Positions 549 to 58,192 of a DNA stretch of 64,000 bases are shown piece by piece. The stretch is taken from the NCBI GenBank assembly GCA_002377585.1, contig DFQC01000007.1, forward strand, positions 2,706 to 66,705, written 5' to 3'. The notes below the pieces were generated by a model. The model did not search any database. It saw only the letters and a program-made list of their open reading frames with translations, and had not been told where the DNA came from. The position numbers and the translations under genes are program-made. The stretch's first letter is position 1. Every line of letters starts with the position of its first letter. Source of the stretch: Anaerolineales bacterium UBA3499 (GTDB lineage Bacteria > Chloroflexota > Anaerolineae > Anaerolineales > UBA11657).

Positions 549-1259
549 ATGAATGTCGACACGTTAATAAATAATAGTAGACCTTTTTTGGAATATGTTT
601 TGGCATGGGAAGCGAATCTACCAGAATTGTTGTTGAAAGATGTAATTAATGACCCCTCGTCTACCGCTATAGTTTCAGTTGACGTAATAAATGGATTTTG
701 TTACGAAGGTGCACTGGCAAGCCCTCGTGTTCAGGCTATTATTAAACCCATTGTGGATATTTTCAAACAGGGTCAGGCTATGGGAGTAGAAAATATAATA
801 TTGGCCCAAGATAACCATGAAGTTGATGATATAGAATTTGGTTCCTATCCTCCTCATTGTGTGCGTGGTACTGCAGAGGCGGAGTCAGTCCCAGAATTTC
901 AGGAATTGGAATTTTATAGTGATATGGTTGTTATAGAGAAAAACTCTATTAGCGCTACTATTGATACCGAGTTTGGCTCATGGCTTGATGGTCATCCAGA
1001 AGTTACAACATTTATAGTGGTTGGCGATTGTACAGATCTTTGCACGTATCAATTAGCCATGGGTATACATTTGCGTGGTAATGCTAGAAATATCCAGCAG
1101 CGAGTAGTGTTACCAGCTAACTGTGTGGCTACCTATGACATGTCTGTATCTGATGCACAAGAGTATGGTGCTGTCCCACATGATGGTGATTTGCTACACC
1201 ATGTTTTTCTGTATTCGATGATGCTGAATGGCGTTGAAGTTGTTAAAGCTTTGAATTAG
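549..1259 (+). CDS. Isochorismatase-family cysteine hydrolase, nicotinamidase/pyrazinamidase-like
   Basis: A D-K-C triad context is present (VSVDVINGF, IEKNS, VVGDCTDLC). The metal-site segment QDNHEVDD...SYPPHCVRGTAEAE resembles the nicotinamidase signature (D-x-H ... P-x-HC-V-x-GT). Confidence 0.65.
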   Translation: MNVDTLINNSRPFLEYVLAWEANLPELLLKDVINDPSSTAIVSVDVINGFCYEGALASPRVQAIIKPIVDIFKQGQAMGVENIILAQDNHEVDDIEFGSYPPHCVRGTAEAESVPEFQELEFYSDMVVIEKNSISATIDTEFGSWLDGHPEVTTFIVVGDCTDLCTYQLAMGIHLRGNARNIQQRVVLPANCVATYDMSVSDAQEYGAVPHDGDLLHHVFLYSMMLNGVEVVKALN

Positions 1260-1278
1260 GCTAACAGAGCTAGTGGTT

Positions 1279-1300
1279 TTCCTAAACTCTCGGTTAGGAA
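1279..1300 (+). terminator. Putative rho-independent terminator after the nicotinamidase-like gene
   Basis: A 7-bp stem ttcctaa/ttaggaa with an 8-nt loop is followed by tttcatt on the + strand. It lies in the 46-bp convergent gap. Confidence 0.35.
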
Positions 1301-1305
1301 TTTCA

Positions 1306-1800
1306 TTATTCTTGACGCATATAAATTGCAGCCTGTTTAACTGCGGCTATGATGGATTGGTATCCGGTGCATCTACATATGTTCCCTGACAATTCTTCAC
1401 GAATTTCTGTATCGGTTGGGTTAGGATTGCGTGACAATAGGTCCTGTACTGTTAGTAGAAAACCTGGTGTACAAAAACCACACTGCAAACCAAAGTTCTC
1501 CCAAAAGGCTTGTTGGATTGGGTGTAGCTGGTCGCCAGACGACATGCTTTCTACAGTTTGAACCGAATGTGAGTCGGCTTGTACGGCTAACATAATACAA
1601 GATCGTACTGGTTGACCATCAAACATGACAGTACAAGCTCCACATACTCCATGCTCACAACCTACATGGGTTCCAGTAATACCCAGTTCATTACGTATAA
1701 AGTCGACCAGAGTGACTCGGGTTTCAACCTTTCTTTCATACTCAATTCCATTGACTGTGAGTTTGATTAACCTACTATTATCTGTAGCTTCTTGTACCAT
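1306..1800 (-). CDS. Molybdenum hydroxylase (xanthine dehydrogenase/CoxS family) [2Fe-2S] small subunit
   Basis: Both Fe-S motifs are present: CEHGVCGACTV and QCGFCTPG...CRCTGY. Its start overlaps the stop of the FAD subunit by 1 nt at position 1800. Confidence 0.9.
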   Translation of the reverse strand: MVQEATDNSRLIKLTVNGIEYERKVETRVTLVDFIRNELGITGTHVGCEHGVCGACTVMFDGQPVRSCIMLAVQADSHSVQTVESMSSGDQLHPIQQAFWENFGLQCGFCTPGFLLTVQDLLSRNPNPTDTEIREELSGNICRCTGYQSIIAAVKQAAIYMRQE

Positions 1801-2678
1801 TATTTGCCTCCTGATTTGTTAGCTCTCTCCGTTGCTTTTTGTAGAGCGGACAAGACCAATACTGATGCGAGATGGCGGCGATAATCCGCAGAGGCATGCA
1901 TATCACTATCTGGATCAAGTTCTTTACTGGCTTGTTCTGCTACGTCCTTAAGGAGTGCGTCACTTATTGTTTCTCCTATAAGCATTGATTCTGCTTTGCT
2001 TGTTCTAATTGGAATTGGTCCTCCTCCAATAATTGCTATACGAGATTTAGTGCACCGTCTATTTTCTAGAGTCAAATATGCAGCTACTCCAAGTATTGCG
2101 AAATCACCATGCCGGCGGCTAAATTCAATAAATGACCAACCGGATGTTTTGACCCAGTTGGGCAATTGGATTTCTACTAGTATTTCATCAGGTTCTAAGT
2201 CGGTGGTTAGAGCTGAAACGTAGAAATCACTGGCATCCACTGTTCTTGTACCTTTCGTATTGCGTATTAGTATAGTTCCATCTAATGCAAGCATTATAGC
2301 TGGCCATTCTGCTGCGGGGTCGGCATGGGCAACACTACCACCAACTGTACCGCGGTTACGAATAGATCGATGTCCAATGTAGGGGATTGACGCAGCTAAA
2401 ATGGGTTGAGTGGTTCTAAGGTTAGTATCATCTTCTAGTGTGCTTTGTCGGGTCATGGCACCCACTCTTAGGCCTGTATTATCTGATTTGTAGTACTCCA
2501 AATCTGCGACACGATTTAAATCAACTATGATTTGAGGTGTTGATAAGCGCATGTTTAATAATGGTCCCAGGCTTTGACCACCAGCTAGAATTTTGGCGTC
2601 ATCTCCATATTGCTGTAGTAGGTCCAGTACTTCTTCCACACTGTCAGGATCATAATAATCAAAAGGTGCTGGTTTCAT
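1800..2678 (-). CDS. Molybdenum hydroxylase FAD-binding medium subunit (CoxM/XdhB-like)
   Basis: It has the ILAGGQSLGPLLNMR FAD-binding motif, is 292 aa long, and sits between the large and small subunits. Confidence 0.85.
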   Translation of the reverse strand: MKPAPFDYYDPDSVEEVLDLLQQYGDDAKILAGGQSLGPLLNMRLSTPQIIVDLNRVADLEYYKSDNTGLRVGAMTRQSTLEDDTNLRTTQPILAASIPYIGHRSIRNRGTVGGSVAHADPAAEWPAIMLALDGTILIRNTKGTRTVDASDFYVSALTTDLEPDEILVEIQLPNWVKTSGWSFIEFSRRHGDFAILGVAAYLTLENRRCTKSRIAIIGGGPIPIRTSKAESMLIGETISDALLKDVAEQASKELDPDSDMHASADYRRHLASVLVLSALQKATERANKSGGK

Positions 2679-2703
2679 AATTATTCCTATTTTATAGCAC
2701 TGT

Positions 2704-5055
2704 CTAATTTGTTTTGTCTTGCATCGGCATCAACCATTGCCATACTTTCTCAGGAGTGATTGGTAGTACATTGACATTGTTACCTGAATCGCCAAGGGCA
2801 TCAGCCACTGCGTTGGCCAAAGCTCCTCCTATACCGGCTATGCCACATTCTCCTGCTCCTTTTACTTGTATCGGGTTTAGGGTGGATGGTGATCTATCTA
2901 ATCTTTTTGATTCCAGAAGAGGTGTCTCAGTAGTTGTAGGGAGGAGATAGTCTACGAAAGACCCGCTTGTTAGTTGGCCACTCGGGTCATAGTTGAATTC
3001 TTCTAGCAAGGCTCCACCCAATCCTTGTACTGCTCCTCCTTCGATTTGTCCCTTTACCATTTGTGGGTTTATTGCTTTACCAATGTCATAGACTATCCAT
3101 ACGTGCTTGGGAACAATTGCACATGTTGTAATATCTATTTCTACCTTCACTATAGTAGCTCCATGTGCGAATGTCATTTGATTACATCTGAAATAGTGGG
3201 TGAAATCGAGTCCTGGCTCTATATCCGGCGGGCAATTTCGCGGACTAGATTGTTGAGCTACCTGTGTTAAGGTTAACCGCTTGTCCTGATGGTCGATCAT
3301 GCAAATATCCCCATCGCTAATTATAAGTTGTTCAACCTGACAATTCATAGTGTGAGCTGCTATCTTCAGTAATTTTTTGCGGATTTTTTGAGCTGCATAG
3401 TAAACCGCACTTCCCGCCATCACGGTAGCTCGGCTAGCAAAGCTACCTACTCCATAAGGTATAAGGTCAGTGTCGCCATGTAATACTTGAATTGAGTCAG
3501 GTGATACTGTAAGTACAGATGATGCTATTTGTGCCAATGTTGTCTCAAGGCCTTGGCCAACATTGGCAGCTCCGGTGCTTACTGTTATGGCTCCAGTTTG
3601 ATCAATCTCTATTCGTGCTCCTTCGAAAGGGCCAAGGCCCGTTTTTTCTACAAAGCACGCAATTCCATACCCAACCTTCTTGTTGGACAAGTTATCATGG
3701 TCAACATGACGATTTTCTTCATATTTGGATAAGCGGACTACTTCCTGTAATGCAAAGGGATAATCACCGCTATCATAAACAATATTCTCACCCAACGATT
3801 CGGTGCCAACCTCATAAGGCATATCCTCAGGTTGTATGAGATTCATTGATCGTATTTTGACAGGATCTATCATGAGTTCCGACGCTGCAAGATCTAATAA
3901 TCGCTCTCGACTACTGTTACATTCATAGCGTCCCGGAGCTCTATATGTTCCAGCAGGTGTCTTGTTGGTCAGTACTGAACGAACCTCACACCGATAATTA
4001 GGGATGCGATAGGGACCGGGAAATATTGCTGCACTTAGTTCGGGTACAATTATCCCGTGTGTACGAATATAACCTCCTTGATCGTTCGACAAAAGAACTT
4101 TTATTCCCAAGATGGTGCCATCTTTTTTGAGTGCCATTTCCATCTCGTAAATTTGTTCTCGGGAATGATTACAGGCCATCAGATTTTCTAGACGATCCTC
4201 TATCCATTTGACCGGACGTTTAAGCATAAGAGCTGCGTATGGAATCAGATAGTCCTCAGGATAGAATTCACCGCGTACCCCGAACCCTCCTCCCACATCA
4301 GGTTCTATCATTTCAATTGTGTGCTCTTCCATTTCCAACATGTGTGCAAGTACACCACGATTAAAATGAGTTACTTTGGTAGGACCCCACACTTTTAATT
4401 TTTCCTGGGTTGCATCATAGTTGGCTATCAAACCACGCGTTTCGAGTGGTACGCCGCTATGTCGCCCAGAGGTAAATCGGAGTTTAGTGATATGCTCGGC
4501 CTTATTAAACGCTTCAACCACATCTCCTTTTTGTTGTACGAAGTTGGATGCTACATTGTCTTTTGCGTCATGGTGTAAGGGACAACTCACCTTGTCTTCG
4601 GCATCTATATTGACTGGTAATGGGTCATACTGGACAACAATATTGTCTAAGACATCTTCAGCTTGGTAGCGGCTGTGAGCTATTATCAAAGCGACAGGGT
4701 CGCCTACATATCGTACTCGTTTGTTTGCTAACGGGTACTGTAGAAATGGCTCAAGTGATCCGTAAGGATTTAGTCGTATTGGTATTGGTTTTACGGAATG
4801 CAAATCTGCAAATGTCAATATGGTAACTACACCAGGTTGTTCAAGCGCGAAATCAACATCTATATTTGTGATTGTGGCATGAGCATAAGGACTGCGAAGC
4901 ACAGCGGCATGTAGCATGTCAGGCAATTGCAAGTCATCTATATAATGACCTTGACCTTGCAGAAAACGCTTGTCTTCTAATCGCTTTATAGACTCTCCAA
5001 TGCCTTTGGAATGTTCAATTTTCATATAGTTGTGTTGACCTAAACAACTTACCAT
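2704..5055 (-). CDS. Molybdopterin-binding large subunit 1 (xanthine dehydrogenase/aldehyde oxidase family)
   Basis: N-terminus GESIKRLEDKRFLQGQGHYIDD, active-site loop TYRAPGR, and C-terminal KGAGECG (Mo-site Glu). An alternative start, MKIEHSK at 5025, is equally plausible. No Shine-Dalgarno sequence is seen for either start. Confidence 0.85.
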   Translation of the reverse strand: MVSCLGQHNYMKIEHSKGIGESIKRLEDKRFLQGQGHYIDDLQLPDMLHAAVLRSPYAHATITNIDVDFALEQPGVVTILTFADLHSVKPIPIRLNPYGSLEPFLQYPLANKRVRYVGDPVALIIAHSRYQAEDVLDNIVVQYDPLPVNIDAEDKVSCPLHHDAKDNVASNFVQQKGDVVEAFNKAEHITKLRFTSGRHSGVPLETRGLIANYDATQEKLKVWGPTKVTHFNRGVLAHMLEMEEHTIEMIEPDVGGGFGVRGEFYPEDYLIPYAALMLKRPVKWIEDRLENLMACNHSREQIYEMEMALKKDGTILGIKVLLSNDQGGYIRTHGIIVPELSAAIFPGPYRIPNYRCEVRSVLTNKTPAGTYRAPGRYECNSSRERLLDLAASELMIDPVKIRSMNLIQPEDMPYEVGTESLGENIVYDSGDYPFALQEVVRLSKYEENRHVDHDNLSNKKVGYGIACFVEKTGLGPFEGARIEIDQTGAITVSTGAANVGQGLETTLAQIASSVLTVSPDSIQVLHGDTDLIPYGVGSFASRATVMAGSAVYYAAQKIRKKLLKIAAHTMNCQVEQLIISDGDICMIDHQDKRLTLTQVAQQSSPRNCPPDIEPGLDFTHYFRCNQMTFAHGATIVKVEIDITTCAIVPKHVWIVYDIGKAINPQMVKGQIEGGAVQGLGGALLEEFNYDPSGQLTSGSFVDYLLPTTTETPLLESKRLDRSPSTLNPIQVKGAGECGIAGIGGALANAVADALGDSGNNVNVLPITPEKVWQWLMPMQDKTN

Positions 5056-5067
5056 GCTTGTACAAAA

Positions 5068-7398
5068 TCATGATTTTTTCTCATTTTTCAATCTAAATAT
5101 GCGCTCCGGTGTTAGCGGCAACTGTATATCTTGAGCTGATATTTCTAGTGCATCTAGTATAGCGTTGGTGATTGTAGCTGGTGCTCCTATAGTTCCACTT
5201 TCTCCTACTCCTTTGAAGCCTCCTACACTCCACGGAGAAGGAGTTTCCATGCTGACTATTTTTATGACAGGTGTTTCATATATTCCTGGCACAAGATAAT
5301 CCATTAGTGATCCACTTAGCAATTGTCCTTCACTATCGTACGATAACTCCTCCAATAATGCTATTCCTATACCTTGTGTTACTCCTCCTCGTACCTGTCC
5401 CTCTACAATAGCTTGATTGACCTTGGTGCCACAATCTTCAGCTACAACATAGTCTTTGATCTTCACCTCATACGTGTTCTTGTCTATTTCTACTAATGCC
5501 ATATGTACTGCGGATGAACTGACAGCGGGAGGCGGGTTGTATGATACATGCACCGAGAGTCCTGGTTCAACACTAGGTGGTAGTTTCTGAAACGGAGTGT
5601 ATGCTAGATCAGCTAAGTCTTTTAGACTAAGATGTTCTGAGCTTTGATTTGGGTTGGATATTCTTCCATCAACATACTCCAGATCCTTGTTATCGATTTG
5701 CCAGTAAGCCGCTGCTATTCTAACGAGTTTGTCTTGTAACATTTCAGTGGCTTTTAACAGAGCTCCACCGCCACTTACTAGACTTCGACTGGCAAATGTT
5801 CCAGATCCGTAAGGGGTAGTAGCTGTATCGCCTAGGTGAACTTTAATGTCATGAAGTGGGGCACCCAATGAGCTAGAGATCAGTTGGGCAAAGGTTGTTT
5901 TTTGACCTTGTCCCTGAGATGGCGTACTAATAAATGCTTCTAGGTGGCCATGGCGATCTACTTGCAGTCTAGCTGCATCGAAAGCAGGTACATTGATCAT
6001 TCCTCGTTTGCGATAGGTGTCGCGCCCCATGCCAGTCATTTCGATGAAGCATGACATACCTATACCTAGCAACCGACCTTCATTACGGGCTTCAGATTGA
6101 AGATTTCGCCAAGCTGAATAGTTTGATTCTTCCAGCGCTAGATCTAGTAATGCTGGGTAGTCGCCGCTATCATAGATTGGTCCTGCAGGGCTTTTGAATG
6201 GAAAGTCTGTGGGTTGGGCTAAGTTTTTCTTACGTAAGAGAGCAGGGTCCATTCCTATCTTTTGAGACAACTTATCTAGCAGTCCTTCCATTACCATAGG
6301 TCCTAACACAAATCCGACTCCTCGGTATGCTCCCATTGGACACTTGTTCGTAGAAACAGCATAACCTTCGTAGGAGTAGTGCTCAAAGTCATAAGGACCT
6401 GCGAGTGCGCTACCTATAGTAAATGGCTCGAGGCCTGCTGTGAGAGGAAATGAATTGTAGGCTCCTACATCACATATTGCCTTGGCTCTCATTCCAACTA
6501 TGGTTCCGTCAATATTGGCAGATAATTCTGCTTCAACTAACACATCTCGTGCATGAAAGCTGGCCTTGATGTTTTCCATGCGGTCCTGCGTCCATTTAAT
6601 CGGACGATGTAATAATCGTGCTAAATAAGATACGACTATTTCTTCTGGTAAAGCTTGCATTTTAGTCCCAAAGCCACCACCAACATCTGGCGCAATAACT
6701 CTGATTTGGTGTGCTGATATTCCAAGCGAATCACATAATGCATCACGTAGCACATGAGGAATCTGGGTTGATGACCAAACGACTAGCTCATCTGTATTAG
6801 TTCTATAGTCTGCAATTACCCCACAGTTTTCAATTGGTATTCCTGTCACGCGTGGATGCCGGAAGTTAGCGCTGACTTTTATATCACCCTTTTTAAAAGC
6901 AGGGTCGTCCTTGTCGATCCCAGACTGTGTTTCTAGCAAGATATTACTGTTGAGGTTGTCATGTACACGAGCAGAATCTGCTAGCATACCGGTTGCTGCT
7001 GAGTCTATCACTGGTAGTGGTTCGTACTCAACAATAACATGCTCAGCAGCATCTTCTGCAATGTACCGATCTGAAGCCACAACAACTGCAACTGCTTCAC
7101 CTACGTAGCGTACTTTGTCCCAGGCCATAGCATGCCAGTTGGTGGCTTGAAAACCAGGATTTTTCAGCTGTGGTCTTATCGGCTGGATGTTCGCATGTAT
7201 ATTCAGGCCACTTAACACAGCAATAACCCCAGTCTGTCTTTTGGCTACTTCGGTATCTACATTGTTGATGCGTGCATGCGCATAAGGACTACGTACGAAT
7301 GTGACATGGAGCATATTGGAGAATTGAATGTCATCTATATAACGGCCTTCTCCTCGTAGTAGAGGTAGTTGTTCATTACATAGGATTGAAGTTGACAT
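5068..7398 (-). CDS. Molybdopterin-binding large subunit 2 (full-length paralog)
   Basis: 776 aa. N-terminus LPLLRGEGRYIDD, loop GAYRGVGF, and C-terminal KGVGESG. It lies directly upstream of large subunit 1, giving the order L-L-M-S. Confidence 0.85.
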   Translation of the reverse strand: MSTSILCNEQLPLLRGEGRYIDDIQFSNMLHVTFVRSPYAHARINNVDTEVAKRQTGVIAVLSGLNIHANIQPIRPQLKNPGFQATNWHAMAWDKVRYVGEAVAVVVASDRYIAEDAAEHVIVEYEPLPVIDSAATGMLADSARVHDNLNSNILLETQSGIDKDDPAFKKGDIKVSANFRHPRVTGIPIENCGVIADYRTNTDELVVWSSTQIPHVLRDALCDSLGISAHQIRVIAPDVGGGFGTKMQALPEEIVVSYLARLLHRPIKWTQDRMENIKASFHARDVLVEAELSANIDGTIVGMRAKAICDVGAYNSFPLTAGLEPFTIGSALAGPYDFEHYSYEGYAVSTNKCPMGAYRGVGFVLGPMVMEGLLDKLSQKIGMDPALLRKKNLAQPTDFPFKSPAGPIYDSGDYPALLDLALEESNYSAWRNLQSEARNEGRLLGIGMSCFIEMTGMGRDTYRKRGMINVPAFDAARLQVDRHGHLEAFISTPSQGQGQKTTFAQLISSSLGAPLHDIKVHLGDTATTPYGSGTFASRSLVSGGGALLKATEMLQDKLVRIAAAYWQIDNKDLEYVDGRISNPNQSSEHLSLKDLADLAYTPFQKLPPSVEPGLSVHVSYNPPPAVSSSAVHMALVEIDKNTYEVKIKDYVVAEDCGTKVNQAIVEGQVRGGVTQGIGIALLEELSYDSEGQLLSGSLMDYLVPGIYETPVIKIVSMETPSPWSVGGFKGVGESGTIGAPATITNAILDALEISAQDIQLPLTPERIFRLKNEKKS

Positions 7399-7476
7399 TA
7401 TTGAAGTTGGTTTAGTTATTTACATTAAGTGATTATATGCTGATATGATTTAAGTTTCGAGCTGTGAGATGTCTGA

Positions 7477-8250
7477 TTATAAGGTAGTCTTTACCATCCA
7501 GAATTGATTATCTTCCCTGTAATTAACCAGTAATTGTTTTTCTATAGAAAATTCCTGAACTGCCTGAACTACTCCTAAACCACTAGGGTGTCCATAATCA
7601 TCTCCACACATAACTCCGAACTGTTTTAGTTTAGGATAGTACGCATAGAGGTCCTTGATTACTGCTTCGTATTCGTGATCACCATCAATGTATATGAAGT
7701 CAAAGTATTGATCGTCAAACATCTCTGCAGCTTCTATAGAAAATTTCTTGATTATCTTGACCTTAGTATTGTTAGAGAATTTTGCTAAAGTAGTTTCATA
7801 TCTATTTTTATGAAACAAGTATTTCTCTCTGTCTTCATTATTATTTATTGCTCTTTCCCATGGGTCAATTAATATCAGTTCTTGCATGTTCAGGAACTTC
7901 AATATTGTTGAAGCGTTTACGCCGCTAGCAACTCCAATTTCAGCTCCAACTAAAGGTGGTGAAGAATTGCCAGAGGTCATATGTAGGTTTTTTATAAAAT
8001 AGAAAGGGCTACGTACAATCTTCCTGTCGACTGCTTTGATAAATACTATTAACAAGGTAAATATTATCAAATAGAATGTTATTGTCCATAAAACAAGAAA
8101 GAATATGCTCTGTGTTGTTACTTCAACTAACAACACAAACAATGCAAGCACAGGAATAGGAACTAACATTAAGGTGACAATGGTTCGAACCCATCTATAA
8201 GATGTTTTTCCAATGAGTTGATATAGCTTGTTTTTGATTACAGATAACAT
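7477..8250 (-). CDS. Membrane-anchored class I SAM-dependent methyltransferase (TylF/Methyltransf_24-like)
   Basis: Two N-terminal hydrophobic helices are followed by EIGVASGVNAS (motif I-like) and FDFIYIDGDHEYEAV. Confidence 0.55.
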   Translation of the reverse strand: MLSVIKNKLYQLIGKTSYRWVRTIVTLMLVPIPVLALFVLLVEVTTQSIFFLVLWTITFYLIIFTLLIVFIKAVDRKIVRSPFYFIKNLHMTSGNSSPPLVGAEIGVASGVNASTILKFLNMQELILIDPWERAINNNEDREKYLFHKNRYETTLAKFSNNTKVKIIKKFSIEAAEMFDDQYFDFIYIDGDHEYEAVIKDLYAYYPKLKQFGVMCGDDYGHPSGLGVVQAVQEFSIEKQLLVNYREDNQFWMVKTTL

Positions 8251-8305
8251 TTACGTTTGTACACCATATATTGTGTGGTCTTATGTTATTTAACATCGAA
8301 CATTA

Positions 8306-9103
8306 TTATGTGTCCATTATAGCTTTTCGTTGACCACCATCGATTTCTATCATCGTACCATTAATGAAGTGGGCTCGGTCAGATGCCATGAATGTGGCTA
8401 AATCAGCTACCTCTTCAGTTGTACAAATGCGGCCCAATGGGATACTTGCTTTAGACAGGCGATCGGCCTCTTCTTTAGATATATTGCGATCACGAGCCAT
8501 TGCCTCTAGTAACCCATCCCATCTTTCTGTTTCTACTGGACCAGGATTTATTGCTACAAAAGTTATGTTGTCTTTTCCGTATTGTCCAGCTAATGATAAG
8601 GTGAAGTTCTGCCCTGCCGCGTTGGCAGCACCGGGTGTAATTTCCCAATAAGAAAATTTGACCCCATCATTTCCTATAATGTTGACTACTCTGCCACCAC
8701 CTTGCTTTCGCATGTGGGGTATGATTTCTTTGCAGCAACGTACATATCCCATAAATTTGAGCTGGAGCGATTGCGCCCAATCCTCTTCCGTTAAGGTCTC
8801 TAGAATACCTCCTGGGGAACTACCAGCATTGTTGACCAGAACATCAATGCGTCCAAAATGAGAGATCACATTTTCTGTCATAAGTTTTACGTCTGTAGGT
8901 TTAGTTAGATCAGCAGTTACTGGCAAAACCTCATTTCCCGTCTCGTTTTGAATAAGAGAAGCTGTCTTCTTAAGAAGGTCTTCTCCTCGTGCACAAATTG
9001 CTACTTTGCACCCTTCTTTAGATAGACTTAGACTTATAGCTTTGCCAATTCCTTTGCTTCCGCCAGTGACTAGTACGACTTTATCTTGTAATTTTAGATC
9101 CAT
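8306..9103 (-). CDS. Short-chain dehydrogenase/reductase (SDR) family protein, atypical active-site region
   Basis: The cofactor motifs TGGSKGIGKA and NNAG are present. At the position expected for YxxxK the sequence reads ...ITPGAANAAGQNF..., so the canonical Ser/Tyr/Lys is not evident in my by-eye alignment. Confidence 0.7.
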   Translation of the reverse strand: MDLKLQDKVVLVTGGSKGIGKAISLSLSKEGCKVAICARGEDLLKKTASLIQNETGNEVLPVTADLTKPTDVKLMTENVISHFGRIDVLVNNAGSSPGGILETLTEEDWAQSLQLKFMGYVRCCKEIIPHMRKQGGGRVVNIIGNDGVKFSYWEITPGAANAAGQNFTLSLAGQYGKDNITFVAINPGPVETERWDGLLEAMARDRNISKEEADRLSKASIPLGRICTTEEVADLATFMASDRAHFINGTMIEIDGGQRKAIMDT

Positions 9104-9113
9104 AACAGGCTCC

Positions 9114-9530
9114 TTATTGTTGATCGGTTGATTGGGGGGATTCTAATAGCTCCACTATTGTGCCTCCTAGTGAAATGCCGTCCAGAAATACAATCCGTTT
9201 ACCACGAGCACCTTCTGTGGGACCGAGAAGCACTCGGACCCCATTCCTGACAGCATTAGCTACTGCTGCGTCTAAATCTTCAACTTCAAATGCTATATGA
9301 TGGACTCCTTCACCATTCTCTTTTAAAAAATCCGCATTTAATCCTTCCGAGGTAGTAGGCTCAAGAAACTCAATGTCCATTGAGCCAACTGGAACAAAAC
9401 CAATATTTAGTATTTCCTTGTAGTTTTCCACTTCCTCTAATGGAAGTCCAATAGCGTTTTCAAATGCGGCTGCCGTCTTGTGTAGATTTTTGACAATAAT
9501 TCCTATATGGTCAAGCCTTAGTTTGCTCAT
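9114..9530 (-). CDS. VOC-superfamily protein (glyoxalase/methylmalonyl-CoA epimerase-like)
   Basis: LDHIGIIVKNL...HHIAFEVEDLD pattern, 138 aa. Its start overlaps the upstream gene's stop by 1 nt at 9530. Confidence 0.7.
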   Translation of the reverse strand: MSKLRLDHIGIIVKNLHKTAAAFENAIGLPLEEVENYKEILNIGFVPVGSMDIEFLEPTTSEGLNADFLKENGEGVHHIAFEVEDLDAAVANAVRNGVRVLLGPTEGARGKRIVFLDGISLGGTIVELLESPQSTDQQ

Positions 9531-10156
9531 TAGTCAGTAATAGCCAGTACTCGAGCGGGTGCCCCATCACCTTTTTCTATTTTCATTGGTAAAGCAATCA
9601 TAGTGAATTCTGCGCTACCAATTTGATCGATATTAATTAGGTTTTCAATTAGTGGTATGCCTGCGGCTAATAATATCTGGTGACAAGGATAAGGATAGTG
9701 TCCGTCTACAGAAAAGTCCATTGCTAGCGCTACAATCCCTGTACTCACCAACCAATGAGCAGTTTCTTCAGATAGATACATGTTACCTTTATATAGGTCA
9801 GGCCCTGTCCATCTGCTTGCTGCCCAGTCGGCGTACATCAGCATGCGGTTGTTACGTAATTTATCTTCGTTAGGCAGGCCTCCGGCTTTTAGGTCGTCTA
9901 TTGTAAGTGGATGTCCTGGTTTAGCAATCTGACGTAGATCGCACACATAAGTTTTTCCGTAAAATATACCTAGATCCATCTGATCAATAGTGGTTCCATC
10001 TGAGTAAAAATGCTGTGGCGAATCTATGTGAGTACTAGTATGGATACTGAAAACAATCTTGGTATTGGATCTCCCATCAGCTTTATGGGTTGTAATGGGT
10101 TCCATAGAAATGTTCGGATGCCCTTCAAGAGCTGTCACTGATGGACTAAATGGCAT
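9530..10156 (-). CDS. Cyclase-family protein (kynurenine formamidase-like metal hydrolase)
   Basis: HTSTHIDSPQHF matches the HxGTHxDxPxH cyclase/formamidase motif. 208 aa. Confidence 0.7.
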   Translation of the reverse strand: MPFSPSVTALEGHPNISMEPITTHKADGRSNTKIVFSIHTSTHIDSPQHFYSDGTTIDQMDLGIFYGKTYVCDLRQIAKPGHPLTIDDLKAGGLPNEDKLRNNRMLMYADWAASRWTGPDLYKGNMYLSEETAHWLVSTGIVALAMDFSVDGHYPYPCHQILLAAGIPLIENLINIDQIGSAEFTMIALPMKIEKGDGAPARVLAITD

Positions 10157-10194
10157 AGTTAAATCGATTATATTAATGAGTCACCTCCATTTTA

Positions 10195-11160
10195 TTATTC
10201 TAATTGCAGTTTGCCGTTGCTGATAATACATTTCCCATCTAGTTCAACGGTAGGATTGAGCACCATGCCGTCAAGATGGATATTGCTAGTTACATTACCG
10301 CCCAGAACATGATTATCACCAATTGCGATATGAACCGAACCTTCTAGTTTTTTGTCTTCAGCGAGATTGCCAATAAGACGTGCTTTAGGATTAGTGCCAA
10401 TTGCAAATTCTGCTATATTGTTTGCATCTTTGTCAGACCGATCAATCATCTGTTTCAACATTTGTGCTGACTGGCCACCTTCTATTGATGCTACTCGTCC
10501 TTTGACGACTGTTAAATGAATAGGTTCGTCAAGCAGACCTAGTCCATCCATAGAATGTTCGATTACCAGATTTCCTTCCGTTGTTTCCTCTGCTGGACTA
10601 ATGGCTGTTTCTCCATCTGGCATAGCAGCAAATGTGCCAGGACCTTTTACAATGCCATCCAATATGTGCGGAGTCCGATTGTCGATACTCATTACCAGAT
10701 CTGTGCCAGCATCGGTGCTGACATGAGCTTGTTTGGCTTGTCCCATAAACTCTGCTACTTTCTGGCAAGTGATAGCAATATCTTTGTAGTTTGCGTTGAT
10801 AGCTCCATAAAGCATTAGGTCTTTTGTGATTCCTCTCAGCACTAATATTCTGCTGCCAGCTTGCATAGCATCTCTGGTAGCATCAGTGTGTGTCATGGCA
10901 TGCGTCACTACTTGAAAAACCACATCAGATTTCATCATGGCGGCACTGATAATATTTGATACCTCGCTACCATGTTGTTGGCGAGGAGCCATTACCACCA
11001 GTATAGGGTCACTGTTATATTCATTTGCTACATCTCTAAAAACATTTGCCAATGGCAGTCGTTCAGTATCGGTAACGACACAAACACTTTCACCATTTTG
11101 AAGATGCATACTTTCCGACATTAGTCTGTTTACTACTTCATAAAGTTTTGGATCATTCAT
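10195..11160 (-). CDS. M29 (aminopeptidase T/S)-like metalloprotein, short form
   Basis: The C-terminal segments EGSVHIAIGDN and SNIHLDGMV resemble M29 metal-binding segments. NicX-type ring-cleavage dioxygenases share this fold, and I cannot tell the two apart by eye. Confidence 0.45.
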   Translation of the reverse strand: MNDPKLYEVVNRLMSESMHLQNGESVCVVTDTERLPLANVFRDVANEYNSDPILVVMAPRQQHGSEVSNIISAAMMKSDVVFQVVTHAMTHTDATRDAMQAGSRILVLRGITKDLMLYGAINANYKDIAITCQKVAEFMGQAKQAHVSTDAGTDLVMSIDNRTPHILDGIVKGPGTFAAMPDGETAISPAEETTEGNLVIEHSMDGLGLLDEPIHLTVVKGRVASIEGGQSAQMLKQMIDRSDKDANNIAEFAIGTNPKARLIGNLAEDKKLEGSVHIAIGDNHVLGGNVTSNIHLDGMVLNPTVELDGKCIISNGKLQLE

Positions 11161-11230
11161 TGTGGTTATTTTACATCCTTATTGTTGAGTTGCTCATAAC
11201 AGATTGTGGAATTGACAATTTGCTTGTGCG

Positions 11231-12565
11231 CTAATCACGAGCATATTGCCTTAGTTGTTTTTTGCCTCTGTCAACTATTTTGTGTGCCCGTTTCTCAGCT
11301 TCATACAAGATTTGTTCTTCGTCAAGAGTCTTTAGTTCTCGATTCCGCATCAACCAATTTCCATTCACCATAACATCGCAAACATCGCTACCTTTTACAC
11401 AATGAACAATGTTGGCAACAATATTGTGGACTGGTCTGAGGTGCGGAGCATTCATATCTAGTAATATTAAATCAGCTGGAGCACCAACTTTTAGCATACC
11501 ATGGTCTGACATTCCTACTGCTTTTGCGCCAGCTTGAGTAGCCATACGTAACGCAGTATCTCCTGACACCATAGCTGGGTCAACCGTCTGATATTTGTGA
11601 ATAAGGGCAGTTTGTCTAATAACAGCGAACATATCCATATCCGCATTAGACCCAGGTCCATCTGTCCCTAAAGAGATTTGCACACCAGCATCAACACACT
11701 TTTGTATAGAAGGAAAAGGCATAGCTAGTTTCATGTAGGTAATGGGACAGTGAGGAACTATGACATTCTTGTTCACAAGTATTTCAATGTCTTTATCATC
11801 CACATGTAGTGTGTGCGCTGCGATAGTGACGTCTGGTAAATCGAAAATACCGAGTTTATCCAGATACTGGACTGGACTCAATTTGTATCGTGCAATAGAC
11901 TGATCTACTTGTTCCTTTGTTTCTGCAACATGTAGATGAATACCCTTTCCTAGCTCATGGGCAATTTCCACGGTTTTACGAAGAAAATCATCCGGGCATA
12001 AATATGGTGAATGTGGCCCAATATATGTTTTGATTTTACCCTTTGAAGTTTTATCAAGTTCTTTTATCCAATCTATAGTTTCATCAAGTCCTGATCCCAC
12101 TTCAGTATCTTCCCCCATGCCAAATACAGTCCATGTTAGAGCTGCCTTAAGACCGCTTTCTTGCACCGCGTCAGCTACACGATGCATATAAAAATATTTG
12201 TCATTATAGGCAACTGTACCTGAGCGAATCATTTCAGCTGCAGCTAGAGCGGCAGCCCAATAAACATCATCGGGTGTAATCCCACTTTCAGCAACCCAGA
12301 TGGCTTCGAGCCACTCAACAAATGGAAGATCCTCGGCCCATCCTCTCACCATATTCATTGGGCTGTGGCAATGGGAATTTACTAGTCCGGGCATAGCTAC
12401 TTTATTTGTGCAATCGACTGCAGTGCTAGCGAATTGATCGTTTTCGGAATTGCCTATTTCCGTTATGATGCCATTTTCGACTACTAATGTAACGTTTTTG
12501 TGAATAGTCCCTTTTTCATCAAGTGTTATTACATCAATATTGCTAAGAGATGTTCTATTAGTCAT
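11231..12565 (-). CDS. Amidohydrolase-superfamily deaminase (MtaD/SsnA/TRZ-ATZ, guanine-deaminase-like group)
   Basis: PGLVNSHCHSPMNMVRG (HxH), HLHVAETKEQV, and GTDGPGSN. 444 aa. Confidence 0.75.
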   Translation of the reverse strand: MTNRTSLSNIDVITLDEKGTIHKNVTLVVENGIITEIGNSENDQFASTAVDCTNKVAMPGLVNSHCHSPMNMVRGWAEDLPFVEWLEAIWVAESGITPDDVYWAAALAAAEMIRSGTVAYNDKYFYMHRVADAVQESGLKAALTWTVFGMGEDTEVGSGLDETIDWIKELDKTSKGKIKTYIGPHSPYLCPDDFLRKTVEIAHELGKGIHLHVAETKEQVDQSIARYKLSPVQYLDKLGIFDLPDVTIAAHTLHVDDKDIEILVNKNVIVPHCPITYMKLAMPFPSIQKCVDAGVQISLGTDGPGSNADMDMFAVIRQTALIHKYQTVDPAMVSGDTALRMATQAGAKAVGMSDHGMLKVGAPADLILLDMNAPHLRPVHNIVANIVHCVKGSDVCDVMVNGNWLMRNRELKTLDEEQILYEAEKRAHKIVDRGKKQLRQYARD

Positions 12566-12587
12566 AAGTATAAACCTAACATCTGTA

Positions 12588-13829
12588 TTATTGTTTAGCT
12601 GCTTCTAGCTTTTTGCAGTCAATGAGATAACTCTCTGCAATAGCAGCATACATTGCAACTGTGTTGGTGAGACTGTCGATTTGAACCCATTCATTAGCTG
12701 CATGTGCATTACCACCTGTTGGTCCAAAACCACACAAAGTGGGAATGCCCGAGTTGATTAGCATATAACCTTCATTGGCAGGACCAGCTCCAACAGCCTC
12801 CCATTTTCTGTCAGTTGCTCTTTGTGCTACATCAATAGCTATAGATACTAAGGGATGATTATCTTCTAAAGCTACTGCTGGTAAACTGTTTTTTACTCTC
12901 AGTTCCACCTTGAGTCCGGGCCGTATTTTCATTTCATGATTCACCAACAAGTTTATTTGCTCAAGAACAATGTTGGGATCCTGACCTGGCAACAATCTGA
13001 TATCTACAATTGCTGCAGCATTGGCTGGTACCACACTCTCAAACTCACCACCTTTGAATATAGTTCCTGGAGTTACCACATTGCGCAGATTGCCAAATGC
13101 TGGATGAGGTGGTGCATCGATAGTTGTAGCTTCAAGCTTGAGCAAAATAGCTGCCAATCCAGTGACTGCATTCGTACCTTCTATGCCGTCATTCCATTCT
13201 TGGCCACCGGTATGTACTGATTTACCAGTTGTTGCTATCTCCAATCTCAGTAGACCGCGGTGTCCAATACAGACTACATCGCTAGCATACGTATATATTG
13301 CTCCTTTAGCTTGAATCAGGTTATTGTCCAAAAGATGCCTTACACCAATATTGCTTGTGGCACCAGATTCTTCATCAGAAACCGCAGCCAAAGTTATCTT
13401 AATATTCTTATTGTCAATAAGACGCAAATCTTTCATCATGGAAATAGCGTATAGGGCACAGGCTGCTCCAGCTTTGTTGTCAGCTGTACCACGACCGTAA
13501 ATTCGACCGTCGCGCTTGGTAGGTTTGAATGGAGGAGATGACCAGGCTTCCTCTGTTCCGGCAGCTACAGTGTCCATGTGAGCAACGAACAGGAATTCAA
13601 ATGGCCCTTCACCATGACTTATCAAAACGTTGGGCCTGTTCTTATCTAAAGCTTCTACTTGTGATTGGAGATTAAGTTTATGTGCTTCTTCTGCTATACG
13701 ATTCGCAGTATCTTTCTCGCTGTTTGATCCATTGACGGATTTTAAAGAAACCAGTTCGTCCAGAAAACTTACTATATTATCTTCTAGGGATTGGGCAGAT
13801 GATTGCAGCTTTTTAAGCGGTGTTAGCAT
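12588..13829 (-). CDS. M20-family metallohydrolase (ArgE/DapE/acylase-like)
   Basis: FVAHMDTV, GTADNKAG and VSDEESG motifs. It is separated by 3 nt from the upstream nucleoside hydrolase gene. Confidence 0.75.
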   Translation of the reverse strand: MLTPLKKLQSSAQSLEDNIVSFLDELVSLKSVNGSNSEKDTANRIAEEAHKLNLQSQVEALDKNRPNVLISHGEGPFEFLFVAHMDTVAAGTEEAWSSPPFKPTKRDGRIYGRGTADNKAGAACALYAISMMKDLRLIDNKNIKITLAAVSDEESGATSNIGVRHLLDNNLIQAKGAIYTYASDVVCIGHRGLLRLEIATTGKSVHTGGQEWNDGIEGTNAVTGLAAILLKLEATTIDAPPHPAFGNLRNVVTPGTIFKGGEFESVVPANAAAIVDIRLLPGQDPNIVLEQINLLVNHEMKIRPGLKVELRVKNSLPAVALEDNHPLVSIAIDVAQRATDRKWEAVGAGPANEGYMLINSGIPTLCGFGPTGGNAHAANEWVQIDSLTNTVAMYAAIAESYLIDCKKLEAAKQ

Positions 13830-13832: not shown

Positions 13833-14813
13833 TCAAGAAAGCGCTCTTTCTACTATCTGCAAGAATTTCTCTGTAGATATCTCAGTCACCAAATTTGCGT
13901 TTGGTGTTTTGCCACTAAAACCCATCCAATCCACCATTGATTGGCCGCGAGACAGTCCAGATGCAGTTTCAACTGTGACGTATCGCTGTTCAGATCTTGT
14001 GATGACATCTGATTCAAGAACTACTGCTATTGCTATTGGATCTGGAGCATAAAATATCCTTTCTCCAGCAGAACCTTCTACGCTGTAGCCTTCCTCTTTG
14101 CTTACTAAAAAGCTTTCTATGCTGGCCAGCGTTTTTCTTGAAATCTTTTCAAAAAATTTAGCTCGCTTTGAATCTATAGCAAACAATCTGCTGAGATTAT
14201 TTGCATCAATTGGGTGAGCTAGACTTATCTCCCAGTCAACAATTGTAACCATCGGCCATCTAGATAGCACCATTCTAGCTGCTTCGGGATCACGATAGAA
14301 GTTGTATTCCGCAGTGTAATTGCTAGTGTTGCCTTGGGCTCTTATGGCACCACCCATTATGGTTAAGCTACGATATTTTTCTGGTAAGCTAGGGTCAAGC
14401 ATTAGTGCCACAGCTATGTTTGTTAATGGACCTAATGCTACAAGGTCTAGTGCCCCTGCATATTTGTTCCCATATGAACATATGGCTTCAGCTGCGTGAC
14501 CATTTACAGGCTCAATCGATGCTGGTGGAATATCAGCGTCACCAATGCAGTCACCAAGACCATCGTTGCCATGAAACCCTGCTGCGTCTTCAACTGGATT
14601 ATCTAGCAGTGAATCACCACAACCCACGTATATTGGTGCATCTATATCTAATATCTCAACCAATTTGCATGCATTTTCAGTAGTGTGTTCTAGATCTACG
14701 TTGCCAGCAACAGTAGTAATAGCTTTTATTTCTGTGTCGGGATGTGCGCTGGCCATCATAATGGCTAGAGCATCGTCGACACCAGGATCTGTATCTATTA
14801 GTAAGGTTTTCAT
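13833..14813 (-). CDS. Nucleoside hydrolase NH1 (IUNH family)
   Basis: N-terminal [12 protein letters not shown] (DxDxxxDD) and GPLTNIA. The position of the leaving-group His reads YAPDPIAIA, so His is replaced by Pro. Confidence 0.85.
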   Translation of the reverse strand: MKTLLIDTDPGVDDALAIMMASAHPDTEIKAITTVAGNVDLEHTTENACKLVEILDIDAPIYVGCGDSLLDNPVEDAAGFHGNDGLGDCIGDADIPPASIEPVNGHAAEAICSYGNKYAGALDLVALGPLTNIAVALMLDPSLPEKYRSLTIMGGAIRAQGNTSNYTAEYNFYRDPEAARMVLSRWPMVTIVDWEISLAHPIDANNLSRLFAIDSKRAKFFEKISRKTLASIESFLVSKEEGYSVEGSAGERIFYAPDPIAIAVVLESDVITRSEQRYVTVETASGLSRGQSMVDWMGFSGKTPNANLVTEISTEKFLQIVERALS

Positions 14814-14873: not shown

Positions 14874-15875
14874 TTAACCGAACAATTCGAGTATCTGGTC
14901 TGTTTCGCGCTTGTTCTTATCTTGACTGTTTATGGAAGCAAGGTATGCAATTAGTTCCTCTGTGCCTGGCAGCTTGGTGCCAGCTCCCCATACTGTGGTG
15001 GCAAGTGCGCCAAGTACATTAGCAAGCATACCGGTTGCTCTAATATCTATTTTGGATAGCCACCCCAAAATTATCCCAGCTGTGAATGTGTCGCCCGCCC
15101 CAGTTGTATCAATGGTCTTTACCTTATACGATGGTAGCGTTATACATTCGTCTGAATTAGCCAAGACACATCCTTTACCACCCAATTTTACCGCTACTAG
15201 TTCTGGTCCCTGGGATAGGATTTTCTGAGCTATAGTGTGAGGATCACTGTGGTCAACCAAATAACAGGCCTCTTCATATCCTAAAATACATATATTGAGC
15301 TTCGGTATTACTGCACGGATATCTGAGGTGCTGTCAAACACTGGTCTAATGCTAGTGTCCATACTTATAGGAATATCATTTGATTGCGCAATATCTATAG
15401 CATTCAGCAATGTAGGTCTATTCGAAGAGCGAGTTAAAGGGTGGCCGGTAACCTGTAGCATATCTGTGTTAGATATTATGTGAAGTGGGAATTTATGAGT
15501 GTTATCCCAAATGTTGGCGCCCCATGCATTGAAAAAAGTTCGTTCTCCTCCTTTGCTTACTACAGCAAAATTAAGTCCTGTTTTTACTCCTGGTAGTACG
15601 GATACTCCTGATATGTCTACTCCGGTTTGCCTAAAAGCTTTAGCTGCTAAATTCCCCCAGTTGTCGTCCCCAATACAACCTATGAGCTTAGCGGTTACGC
15701 CGAGCTTAGATAGTGCGATTGCAGTATTGCCTACAACTCCACCAGTTTCAACACTATATGAGGGGGCCCCGGCATCATCTCCCTCTTGAGGATATTTATC
15801 TATAGGCATCGTGACATCTACATTTATAGGCCCTAGTAGACACACACTTGCTGGTAAGCGAAGTTTGGGTGTCAT
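14874..15875 (-). CDS. PfkB/ribokinase-family kinase K1
   Basis: DTTGAGDTFTAG anion-hole/catalytic motif and an N-terminal GPINVD sugar-lid region. It overlaps the upstream TrpF-like gene by 4 nt. Confidence 0.8.
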   Translation of the reverse strand: MTPKLRLPASVCLLGPINVDVTMPIDKYPQEGDDAGAPSYSVETGGVVGNTAIALSKLGVTAKLIGCIGDDNWGNLAAKAFRQTGVDISGVSVLPGVKTGLNFAVVSKGGERTFFNAWGANIWDNTHKFPLHIISNTDMLQVTGHPLTRSSNRPTLLNAIDIAQSNDIPISMDTSIRPVFDSTSDIRAVIPKLNICILGYEEACYLVDHSDPHTIAQKILSQGPELVAVKLGGKGCVLANSDECITLPSYKVKTIDTTGAGDTFTAGIILGWLSKIDIRATGMLANVLGALATTVWGAGTKLPGTEELIAYLASINSQDKNKRETDQILELFG

Positions 15876-17756: not shown

Positions 17757-17827
17757 ATGTTCGCATTTATGTTTATTGCGGACCTACAAAAATATATAAG
17801 CATAAGTTTTGGAGGCGATGTTGCATT

Positions 17828-18676: not shown

Positions 18677-18752
18677 TATAGATGATGGATAGATTTTATG
18701 CTTACTAAGCATAGTTTGTGGTCGTGGAAAACACCAGTAAAAGAGGGCTGAT

Positions 18753-19169: not shown

Positions 19170-19223
19170 ACAATGTTTTGTTGAATACATATACTAGGTG
19201 GTCAGTGTCACAGAGATAATCAA

Positions 19224-20866: not shown

Positions 20867-20877
20867 GGACATTAATC

Positions 20878-21858: not shown

Positions 21859-21903
21859 AACAATTATCTGTTCACAAGCATCTTGTGGAATCAACGTTGT
21901 TGC

Positions 21904-44383: not shown

Positions 44384-44424
44384 ACTGTTGCGATTCTTAC
44401 AACAAAATTGTGAGGTTCAATAAT

Positions 44425-57707: not shown

Positions 57708-57760
57708 TGTTTGATCACCTTACATGTGTTAGGAAAATGTATTCAGAAATTACATGTTAG

Positions 57761-58156: not shown

Positions 58157-58192
58157 TTTGTAATCCTCCTCGTGATACTTGTTTGCTGAAAC

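Follow-up and report, generated by a model that had tools for sequence, protein, structure and literature searches.

A composite gene array with two molybdenum hydroxylase large subunits and one FAD/Fe-S module: a candidate N-heterocycle pathway beside nucleoside hydrolysis genes in an Anaerolineales bacterium

Results

Gene content of the array

We analysed a 64,000-nucleotide stretch of contig DFQC01000007.1 of Anaerolineales bacterium UBA3499 (contig positions 2,706 to 66,705; hereafter the window), in which a compact minus-strand array encodes two large subunits of molybdenum (Mo) hydroxylases together with candidate C-N hydrolases and enzymes of nucleoside breakdown. The Pfam assignments of the array proteins are all above the gathering score. 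At the downstream end lie the genes for a 2Fe-2S small subunit, S (1306-1800, with the two 2Fe-2S domains Fer2_2 and Fer2), a FAD medium subunit, M (1800-2678; FAD_binding_5 and CO_deh_flav_C domains), and two large (L) subunits, the Kdh-type MoL1 (2704-5055; 783 amino acids) and the Qor/Ndh-type MoL2 (5068-7398; 776 amino acids), each with all three L-subunit domains, the hammerhead and two MoCo-binding domains. A low-GC insertion (7403-8305), which holds a gene for a membrane Methyltransf_24 protein (7477-8250), separates them from four further genes that complete what we call the core: those of an SDR oxidoreductase (8306-9103; adh_short, E 7e-49), a single-domain VOC protein (9114-9530; Glyoxalase_4 domain), a cyclase-family metal-dependent amidohydrolase of the KynB/isatin hydrolase type (9530-10156; PF04199) and an M29/NicX-fold protein of 321 amino acids (10195-11160; PF02073). 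Upstream of the core are the genes of a TRZ/ATZ-family deaminase (11231-12565; Amidohydro_1), an M20 ArgE/DapE-like deacylase (12588-13829; Peptidase_M20 and M20_dimer), an IU-type nucleoside hydrolase (13833-14813; IU_nuc_hydro, E 9e-80), a PfkB-family sugar or nucleoside kinase (14874-15875; PfkB, E 6e-51) and a PRAI (TrpF)-like isomerase (15872-16546; PRAI, E 2e-17), the last being the first gene of the unit. A plus-strand gene for an isochorismatase-family amidase (549-1259; PF00857, E 9e-20) converges on the array.

The gene list, order and coordinates given for the M20-to-S part by an earlier sequence-only reading of this DNA agree exactly with the open reading frame list and the Pfam scans, as do its tiny or overlapping junctions: these measure between -4 and 78 bp, and the VOC/cyclase and FAD/FeS pairs overlap. 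An upstream extension, in which the PRAI-like and PfkB genes overlap by 4 bp, adds the nucleoside hydrolase, PfkB and PRAI-like genes, so that the minus-strand unit runs from 16546 to 1306 and comprises, besides the methyltransferase insertion, 14 genes. Scans for promoters and terminators gave matches at chance level only and hence no operon evidence; from gene spacing and synteny we infer that the unit is co-transcribed as a composite operon of two modules, a nucleoside module and a ring-degradation core. A search with Rfam found no riboswitch upstream of the operon in the window, nor any in four related loci, and the operon therefore offers no ligand clue of this kind.

Conservation of the core

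A scan of 185,579 species genomes yielded 139 loci that were confirmed by tblastn among the pattern-matched stretches, most of them without Mo genes, and 87 related loci with their Pfam-annotated neighbourhoods formed the comparison set (individual loci are given L numbers). The order M29-cyclase-VOC-SDR-L-L-FAD-FeS recurs in at least six phyla, namely Chloroflexota, Acidobacteriota, Bipolaricaulia, Armatimonadota, Sysuimicrobiota and Bacillota, which argues that the gene arrangement did not arise by chance. Carriers include Anaerolineae, Caldilineaceae and, within the Bacillota, Alicyclobacillus, Aneurinibacillus, Brevibacillus and Scopulibacillus; no Neobacillus locus was found among the 80 best M29-like loci. 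Every cluster that was sequenced through the Mo-gene region has two L genes, one M and one S, and the 64-kb window itself contains a single FAD gene and a single 2Fe-2S gene, with no second M or S. The arrangement behind the earlier suggestion that one FAD/Fe-S module might serve two hydroxylases is thus a conserved pattern, retained even in five Bacillota loci (L004, L006, L018, L020 and L022) in which the order is FAD-FeS-L-L. The SDR protein, 50-84% identical across phyla, was part of the core in every locus compared.

The window differs from most core copies between VOC and SDR, where nearly all others carry a gene for a nitrilase-family CN-hydrolase (second-best NCBIfam model, N-carbamoylputrescine amidase) and many also have a CoxG/SRPBCC gene. 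The next marine relative, L013, retains the CN-hydrolase (at 9925-10734 of that locus), and it is missing from the window, L008, L009 and L011; in the window the VOC-SDR gap is 10 bp, tblastn gave no match, and a search for coxG, dhpH and CN-hydrolase genes found none. Among the loci examined, an isochorismatase-like gene stands beside the operon in L001, L002, L009 and L011 alone, all of them of the window's lineage. Because this lineage has lost the CN-hydrolase and alone has the isochorismatase-like gene in this place, the encoded amidase is a candidate and may be a non-orthologous replacement. The M20 protein was also considered as a stand-in for the missing CN-hydrolase and was rejected, since the two coexist in L013.

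The segment between MoL2 and SDR, about 900 bp at 7403-8305, has a GC content of 0.34 against 0.42-0.44 in the adjoining genes. It is present in L001 and L011 and missing from L008 and L009, where the flanks are 93-98% identical to the window, and it is absent from all other phyla in the loci compared. Low GC content and absence between nearly identical flanks mark it as a strain-variable insertion, and we therefore rejected the Methyltransf_24 protein as a pathway enzyme, a place that the sequence-only reading had given it.

The upstream genes are distributed differently from the core. The PRAI-PfkB-IUNH-M20-TRZ block was found only in marine Anaerolineae (L008, L010, L011 and L013), to which the TRZ gene was confined among the loci compared. 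Nucleoside hydrolases nonetheless adjoin the core in three unrelated lineages, marine Anaerolineae, Acidobacteriota (L016 and L089) and Scopulibacillus, and the link to nucleoside hydrolysis proposed earlier has thereby gained support from independent recurrence. In Alicyclobacillus the core is followed by genes for a family III CoA-transferase and an acyl-CoA dehydrogenase, which would fit a C5 dicarboxylate as the end product.

As to the source of the window, two JGI metagenome contigs and an NCBI metagenome assembly encode the identical MoL1 protein; we take these metagenomes from their accession series to be Tara Oceans samples (the outputs do not name them). The M29-like gene has 96-99% identity with contigs of marine metagenome-assembled genomes that carry the label Anaerolineales (UBA3001 and its relatives), and 87% with UBA1136.

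The two molybdenum large subunits

MoL1 and MoL2 share 35% identity, and both keep the catalytic Glu in the C-terminal G-x-G-E loop (GAGECG in MoL1, GVGESG in MoL2). Among solved structures, MoL2 scored highest against QorL (1T3Q; 573 bits), followed by M. smegmatis CoxL (528), CutL (457) and KdhL (342), and MoL1 scored highest against KdhL (7DQX; 548 bits), followed by CoxL (446) and QorL (433). CO dehydrogenases overall gave 444-528 bits with MoL2 and 384-446 bits with MoL1. The active-site loops agree with these rankings. That of MoL2, NKCPMGAYRGVGF (AYRGVGF), matches the loops of QorL, NKCPIGAYRGVGF, and NdhL, NKCPMGAFRGVGY, with one Met/Ile difference from QorL, and that of MoL1, NKTPAGTYRAPGRYE (TYRAPGRYE), matches the loop of KdhL, NKTPVGAYRAPGRYE (AYRAPGRYE). 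The paper describing the Kdh structure distinguishes loop subtypes AYRAPG for Kdh, AYRGVG for Qor and AYRCSF for CO dehydrogenase, with AFRGFG shared by xanthine dehydrogenase and the nicotinate dehydrogenase of Eubacterium barkeri. The Cys loop of form I CoxL, AY(R/A)CSFR, is absent from both subunits, and their scores for TIGR02416 and NF040766 lie far below the cut-offs. All the motifs listed in the sequence-only reading (AYRGVGF with GVGESG, TYRAPGR with GAGECG, and PPHCVRGT of the isochorismatase-like protein) were recovered, and its assignment of the large subunits to a heterocycle type, in place of a CO dehydrogenase type, held in both scores and loops. Judged by sequence, the case is well supported that both belong to the CoxL/Qor/Ndh/Kdh branch, with N-heterocycle hydroxylases as their nearest solved relatives.

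A second active-site position sets the two subunits apart. MoL2 keeps, in STQIPH, the Gln of the T-Q-x-P-H motif that contacts the apical Mo=O. MoL1 and its entire clade read T-K-V-x-H here, with Lys in place of this Gln (WGPTKVTHFNR, about residues 220-233 of MoL1); KdhL has His at the aligned position. In a neighbour-joining tree with bootstrap, MoL1 and MoL2 fall into separate clades, each at 100%, the MoL1 clade with one subunit from every core-bearing lineage and the MoL2 clade with members from Chloroflexota, Acidobacteriota and Bipolaricaulia.

The Kdh structure paper assigns the first hydroxylation of the pyridine ring to Ndh and the second to Kdh. Because MoL2 has the Qor/Ndh loop and MoL1 the Kdh loop, the pair supports the prediction of two successive alpha-hydroxylations of a pyridine-type ring. 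With the conserved gene arrangement, this led us to an interpretation for which we consider the chances evenly balanced: that the array is a composite operon combining N-riboside breakdown with catabolism of a pyridine-type ring through two Mo hydroxylases that share one M/S module.

One could instead envisage a coincidental mosaic without functional link, in which form II CoxL-like enzymes act on non-heterocyclic substrates and the nucleoside genes are mere neighbours. The best NCBIfam matches of the large subunits, to models of glyceraldehyde dehydrogenase and group 5 CO dehydrogenase (all below cut-off), speak for such enzymes; on plasmids, MoL2 finds its nearest homologues in uncharacterised form II-like proteins of rhizobia (41% identity), and the nucleoside module is lineage-specific. 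The loops, however, fit Qor/Ndh and Kdh and not the form II sequence AYRGAGR, the core shows tight synteny with three C-N hydrolase families across phyla, and nucleoside hydrolases stand beside it in three separate lineages, so that we regard a mosaic as very improbable. A tblastn search of plasmids with the cyclase, MoL1 and MoL2 returned best matches of 30-43% identity, and their contexts in Variovorax and Agrobacterium were uninformative.

The M29/NicX-like protein

NicX was the sole sequence match of the M29-like protein in the PDB. With a profile built from an alignment of 25 M29-like orthologues, NicX scored 63 bits and PepS 37. The protein scored 56.7 bits with PF02073 (cut-off 27), a match that covers only positions 117-349 of the 406 in the profile, and its 321 residues fall short of the length of a full M29 aminopeptidase (about 410 amino acids). 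An AlphaFold2 model (mean predicted local distance difference test score 94) had NicX (7CN3) as its top Foldseek match (TM-score 0.83, E 2e-28), compared with TM-scores of 0.68-0.76 for M29 aminopeptidases (0.54-0.62 when normalised to the target).

In NicX, iron is bound by His265, Ser302, His318 and Asp320, replacement of each of which by alanine abolishes activity, and the substrate by His105, Glu177 and His189 (PMC7910607). The aligned residues of the M29-like protein are Glu251, Ala279, His295 and Asp297 for the iron site, with two of the four ligands kept, and His91, Leu167 and Ala179 for the substrate site, with one of the three kept. These residues are invariant or nearly so in the 25 orthologues. 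In PepS, AmpS and AmpT the positions of Glu184 and Glu251 are taken by the Glu of the PTEE motif and that of the GE(C/V)A motif, which in AmpS are Glu253 and Glu319 when a three-residue tag in the PDB chain is allowed for, residues that we take to be metal ligands. The ligand set that we propose is E184, E251, H277, H295 and D297, of which H295 and D297 were placed through the NicX alignment and H277 by spacing alone. The family thus appears to form a third branch, with a NicX-like fold and the ligand pattern of an aminopeptidase, and because two NicX iron ligands are missing and the aminopeptidase-type Glu positions are kept, the protein is more likely a binuclear hydrolase than a NicX-type dioxygenase.

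This result bears on an oxidative, maleamate-type route, essentially the ring opening favoured in the sequence-only reading, in which the M29-like protein would be a NicX-type Fe(II) dioxygenase of a di- or trihydroxypyridine, the cyclase a deformylase of an N-formyl intermediate and the isochorismatase-like protein a NicF- or PncA-like amidase. NicX is after all the closest solved structure in both sequence and fold, with His318, Asp320 and His105 conserved, and arylformamidases are among the members of the cyclase family; the Pseudomonas putida nic cluster has an isochorismatase-family amidase, NicF. The dioxygenase assignment failed, however, at the Fe(II) ligands, the essential His265 and Ser302 being Glu and Ala and the substrate-binding Glu177 and His189 being Leu and Ala, while both aminopeptidase Glu positions are retained. 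Moreover, the window has no NicC/DhpH-type monooxygenase to make a 2,5-diol, and the core is present in a metagenome-assembled genome of the Bipolaricaulia, an anaerobic class. We therefore consider this route distinctly unlikely, and prefer the composite-operon interpretation with a hydrolytic M29-like enzyme.

Distant members of the M29/NicX-like family, 38-46% identical, were found in haloarchaea, Desulfobacterota and uncultured bacteria (L038, L040, L043 and L046 to L086). They are often paired or tripled paralogues, and most of their loci lack Mo hydroxylase genes, so that the family also occurs in contexts other than the Mo-hydroxylase core.

Cyclase, VOC, SDR and isochorismatase-like proteins

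In the cyclase, the metal motif HxxTHxDxPxH is intact (HTSTHIDSPQH), and the distal His (PCH) and Glu (IEN) positions line up with 8HMO. Its best PDB matches are an unnamed metal-dependent hydrolase, kynurenine formamidases and isatin hydrolases. The VOC protein, which resembles methylmalonyl-CoA epimerase, reached 92 bits with TIGR03081, below the cut-off of 115, and its PDB matches are epimerases; the SDR protein is generic by both NCBIfam and PDB comparison, with 6JH7 as its best PDB match. The isochorismatase-like protein has the PncA-like metal motif DNH...PPHCVRGT with a catalytic Cys, and both the Asp/Lys/Cys triad and the D-x-H...H positions align with those of metal-dependent nicotinamidases. 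It has no NCBIfam match, and its PDB matches, all of them isochorismatase-family proteins, are weak (31 bits at most), with PncA entries at 23-28 bits (E 1e-5 to 4e-4). The protein could be either a nicotinamidase or the replacement of the lost terminal amidase.

The nucleoside module and the surrounding island

The TRZ protein gave its best PDB matches with 4F0R and Tm0936, both deaminases of 5'-methylthioadenosine/S-adenosylhomocysteine (MTA/SAH), at 206-237 bits, compared with 150 bits for 8-oxoguanine deaminase; all its NCBIfam scores are below cut-off. It is thus closest to the MTA/SAH/5'-deoxyadenosine deaminase subgroup, although this placement is predicted from similarity. The M20 protein scored 193 bits with TIGR01910 (cut-off 218), and PfkB (14874-15875) scored 134 bits with the ribokinase model, also below cut-off. 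Because the block is lineage-specific and TRZ is closest to MTA/SAH deaminases, we assign M20 and TRZ to nucleoside processing and not to ring opening. The kinase beside a TrpF-like gene hints at an Amadori-type rearrangement of a phosphorylated N-riboside.

These genes bring forward a purine route, in which the two large subunits would hydroxylate hypoxanthine or xanthine at C2 and C8, on the model of the purine hydroxylase and xanthine dehydrogenase pair of purinolytic clostridia, and the ring of xanthine or urate would then be opened hydrolytically by the metallohydrolases and the amidase. The operon's own deaminase is of the MTA/SAH/adenosine type, adenosine deaminases are encoded just outside the window start and at 44410-45477, the entire window is a general nucleoside island, and the nitrilase family of amidases has N-carbamoyl hydrolases among its members, a fitting activity for ureido intermediates. 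Against this, the solved xanthine dehydrogenases reached only 119-139 bits with either large subunit, and their loop is AFRGFG, whereas the loops found here are of the AYRGVG and AYRAPG types. The core is also rare, unlike a general purine pathway, as the counts of the genome scan make plain, and the SDR and VOC proteins would have no obvious role. On balance a purine route seems unlikely to us, and we retain a pyridine-type ring as the substrate of the composite operon.

Beyond the operon, the region 13833-48958 appears as a very extensive island for the catabolism of nucleosides or N-glycosides, with six IU nucleoside hydrolases and eight PfkB kinases in all, five and seven of which, respectively, lie outside the operon at 16.8-48.9 kb. 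A divergent operon (16791-23022) carries a second set of PRAI-like, PfkB, IUNH and M20 genes; the two PRAI paralogues (15872-16546 and 19224-19898) are 42% identical, and half-size EamA paralogues (138 amino acids) are 34% identical. The island also encodes a BtpA protein (17828-18676), a 2-oxoglutarate-Fe oxygenase (20878-21858), an ADP-ribosylglycohydrolase (27856-29046), two SIS proteins (31923-33050 and 34929-36077), the adenosine deaminase noted above, a PfkB protein fused to a weak Q_salvage domain (47153-48958), and nucleoside-type transporters of the ABC and MFS kinds. Two further open reading frames, at 36188-37357 (389 amino acids) and 41822-43318 (498 amino acids), have no Pfam match. 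To judge by its content, the island may be specialised for modified nucleosides or compounds of the Amadori type. Housekeeping genes follow beyond 48.9 kb, among them gcvH and gcvP (54868-58237), preceded by an ordinary glycine riboswitch (RF00504, 62.7 bits, 58308-58417, minus strand).

Discussion

The steps of the proposed pathway can be outlined as follows. The upstream half of the unit (the PRAI-like, PfkB, nucleoside hydrolase, M20 and MTA/SAH-type deaminase genes) would split N-ribosides and handle the sugar, with the nucleoside hydrolase freeing a pyridine-type base. The two paralogous L subunits would then share a single FAD subunit and a single 2Fe-2S subunit, with water as the source of oxygen: MoL2, the Qor/Ndh-type subunit, would act first and hydroxylate an alpha carbon of the bare ring, and MoL1, the Kdh-type subunit, would hydroxylate the other alpha carbon of the resulting pyridone to give a 2,6-dihydroxy, cyclic imide-like ring. 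The SDR and VOC proteins might adjust the redox or isomeric state of this ring, after which the cyclase-family and M29/NicX-fold metalloenzymes would cut C-N bonds without a classical oxygenase; a flavin monooxygenase gene was found neither in the window nor in any Pfam-annotated core copy. A terminal amidase would finally free ammonia, a nitrilase-family enzyme in other lineages and, as a candidate, the isochorismatase-like protein in that of the window.

There are precedents for the individual steps. For the pfam04199 cyclases HpoH and the PKC of pAO1, an opening of 2,3,6-trihydroxypyridine has been described or proposed whose product, alpha-ketoglutaramate, is turned into alpha-ketoglutarate by an omega-amidase, and hydrolytic ring opening after Mo hydroxylation is known from E. 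barkeri, Azorhizobium and Aspergillus. Because of the analogy with Bacillus niacini, the PncA-like neighbour and the C5-acid genes that follow the Alicyclobacillus cluster, nicotinamide or nicotinate is our best single guess for the substrate, the route then running through 6-hydroxynicotinate to 2,6-dihydroxynicotinate; we offer this guess tentatively and hold it to be possible but doubtful. A more far-reaching version is that the core mineralises a pyridine ring without any oxygenase: two Mo hydroxylases that differ in regiospecificity would sit in a mixed complex on the one FAD/Fe-S module and convert the ring to a cyclic imide, a binuclear metallohydrolase from a hitherto unrecognised third branch of the M29/NicX fold would open that imide, and in pelagic Chloroflexi all this would be tied to nucleoside hydrolysis. 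We think this combination rather unlikely; if it were true, nicotinamide riboside or other N-ribosides would be consumed completely.

Several observations weigh against the composite-operon interpretation. When the array proteins were named against curated NCBIfam equivalog models, none reached a cut-off, and the maturation genes xdhC and mocA were not found in the 64-kb window. Identity of the large subunits to KdhL, NdhL and QorL is only about 36-40%, and the bootstrap values that group MoL1 with KdhL and MoL2 with NdhL are 19-55% and 49%, respectively. The phylogeny, which the sequence-only reading had looked to, thus upheld the two clades themselves, with weak support for their attachment to Kdh and Ndh. 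The second L subunit of the Bacillota forms a separate clade with a PFRGAGR loop, so that the large-subunit pair is not strictly orthologous everywhere. The cyclase of the window shares only 29% identity with that of pAO1, in an alignment of partial length, and is much shorter (208 against 310 amino acids), and the roles given to SDR and VOC are guesses. Finally, the adenosine/MTA-type deaminases, among which are those just outside the window start and at 44410-45477, point to hypoxanthine and not a pyridine as the released base, and pyridine ribosides are minor compounds beside purine and pyrimidine nucleosides.

The earlier proposal that the array degrades the bases released by the hydrolases accordingly stands in part: the two N-heterocycle-type hydroxylases and the shared-module pattern remain, and the NicX-type opening and the parts given to the methyltransferase, M20 and TRZ proteins have been dropped. 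Were the revised interpretation true, it would describe a widespread yet sporadic pathway for N-heteroaromatic compounds without an oxygenase in Chloroflexota, Acidobacteriota, Armatimonadota, Bipolaricaulia and Bacillota, and a third functional branch of the M29/NicX fold. It would also offer, within the xanthine oxidase family, a natural test case of two catalytic subunits served by one electron-transfer module. Pelagic Anaerolineales would couple the uptake and hydrolysis of (modified) nucleosides to the complete degradation of at least one base. As the core is present in four cultured Bacillota (Aneurinibacillus migulanus, Brevibacillus massiliensis, Alicyclobacillus dauci and Scopulibacillus cellulosilyticus), these hypotheses are directly testable.

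We found no description of such a cluster type in the literature. The array belongs to the known class of N-heterocycle pathways initiated by Mo hydroxylases, within which the L-L-M-S arrangement and the hybrid M29/NicX protein are distinctive. NicX of P. putida resembles the M29-like protein most closely, in sequence, in fold and in the conserved His318, Asp320 and His105, but has lost the M29 Glu253/Glu319-type positions that the protein described here keeps, and differs from it by the changes His265 to Glu, Ser302 to Ala, Glu177 to Leu and His189 to Ala. QorLMS of P. putida 86 shares with MoL2 the loop NKCP-GAYRGVGF, apart from the one Met/Ile change, and the catalytic Gln and Glu; it has one L for each M/S set and a different downstream pathway, and the array has no quinoline-specific context. 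In the nicotinate pathway of B. niacini, a nicotinate dehydrogenase and a 6-hydroxynicotinate dehydrogenase lead to 2,6-dihydroxynicotinate, as we propose here, and its 13-gene cluster is reported to encode two Mo oxidoreductases together with one or more Fe-S proteins. Compared by description and not by sequence, that cluster differs in its nicF- and nicE-like genes, its TetR/IclR regulators and the oxidative cleavage of a trihydroxypyridine; we found nothing on the B. niacini genes beyond the genome announcement of 2014.

Also among the closest known systems is the pAO1 nicotine pathway of Paenarthrobacter nicotinovorans (NdhLMS, KdhLMS, PKC and NIT), in which the pyridine ring likewise undergoes two successive Mo-dependent alpha-hydroxylations, by enzymes whose loops are those of MoL2 (Ndh/Qor) and MoL1 (Kdh). 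There, kdhL is followed by genes for the cyclase, DhpH, a SRPBCC/CoxG-like protein and a CN-hydrolase, and the cyclase, SRPBCC and CN-hydrolase families are found in most core copies. The differences are considerable: identity to Ndh and Kdh is only 36-37%, each pAO1 enzyme has its own M and S, the FAD monooxygenase DhpH has no counterpart here, and the pAO1 kdh operon lacks M29-like, VOC and SDR genes. Orthology of the window cyclase to PKC or HpoH, and of the core CN-hydrolase to NIT, was rejected, since the cyclases are only 29% and the CN-hydrolases only 27% identical, and the parallel therefore holds at the level of families. The nicotinate routes of Eubacterium barkeri, Azorhizobium caulinodans and Aspergillus nidulans resemble our proposal in their logic, which consists of a Mo hydroxylase, a redox step on the ring, hydrolytic C-N opening and an amidase, but employ other families (enamidase, old yellow enzyme-type reductase and the imidase HxnM) and a single Mo hydroxylation.

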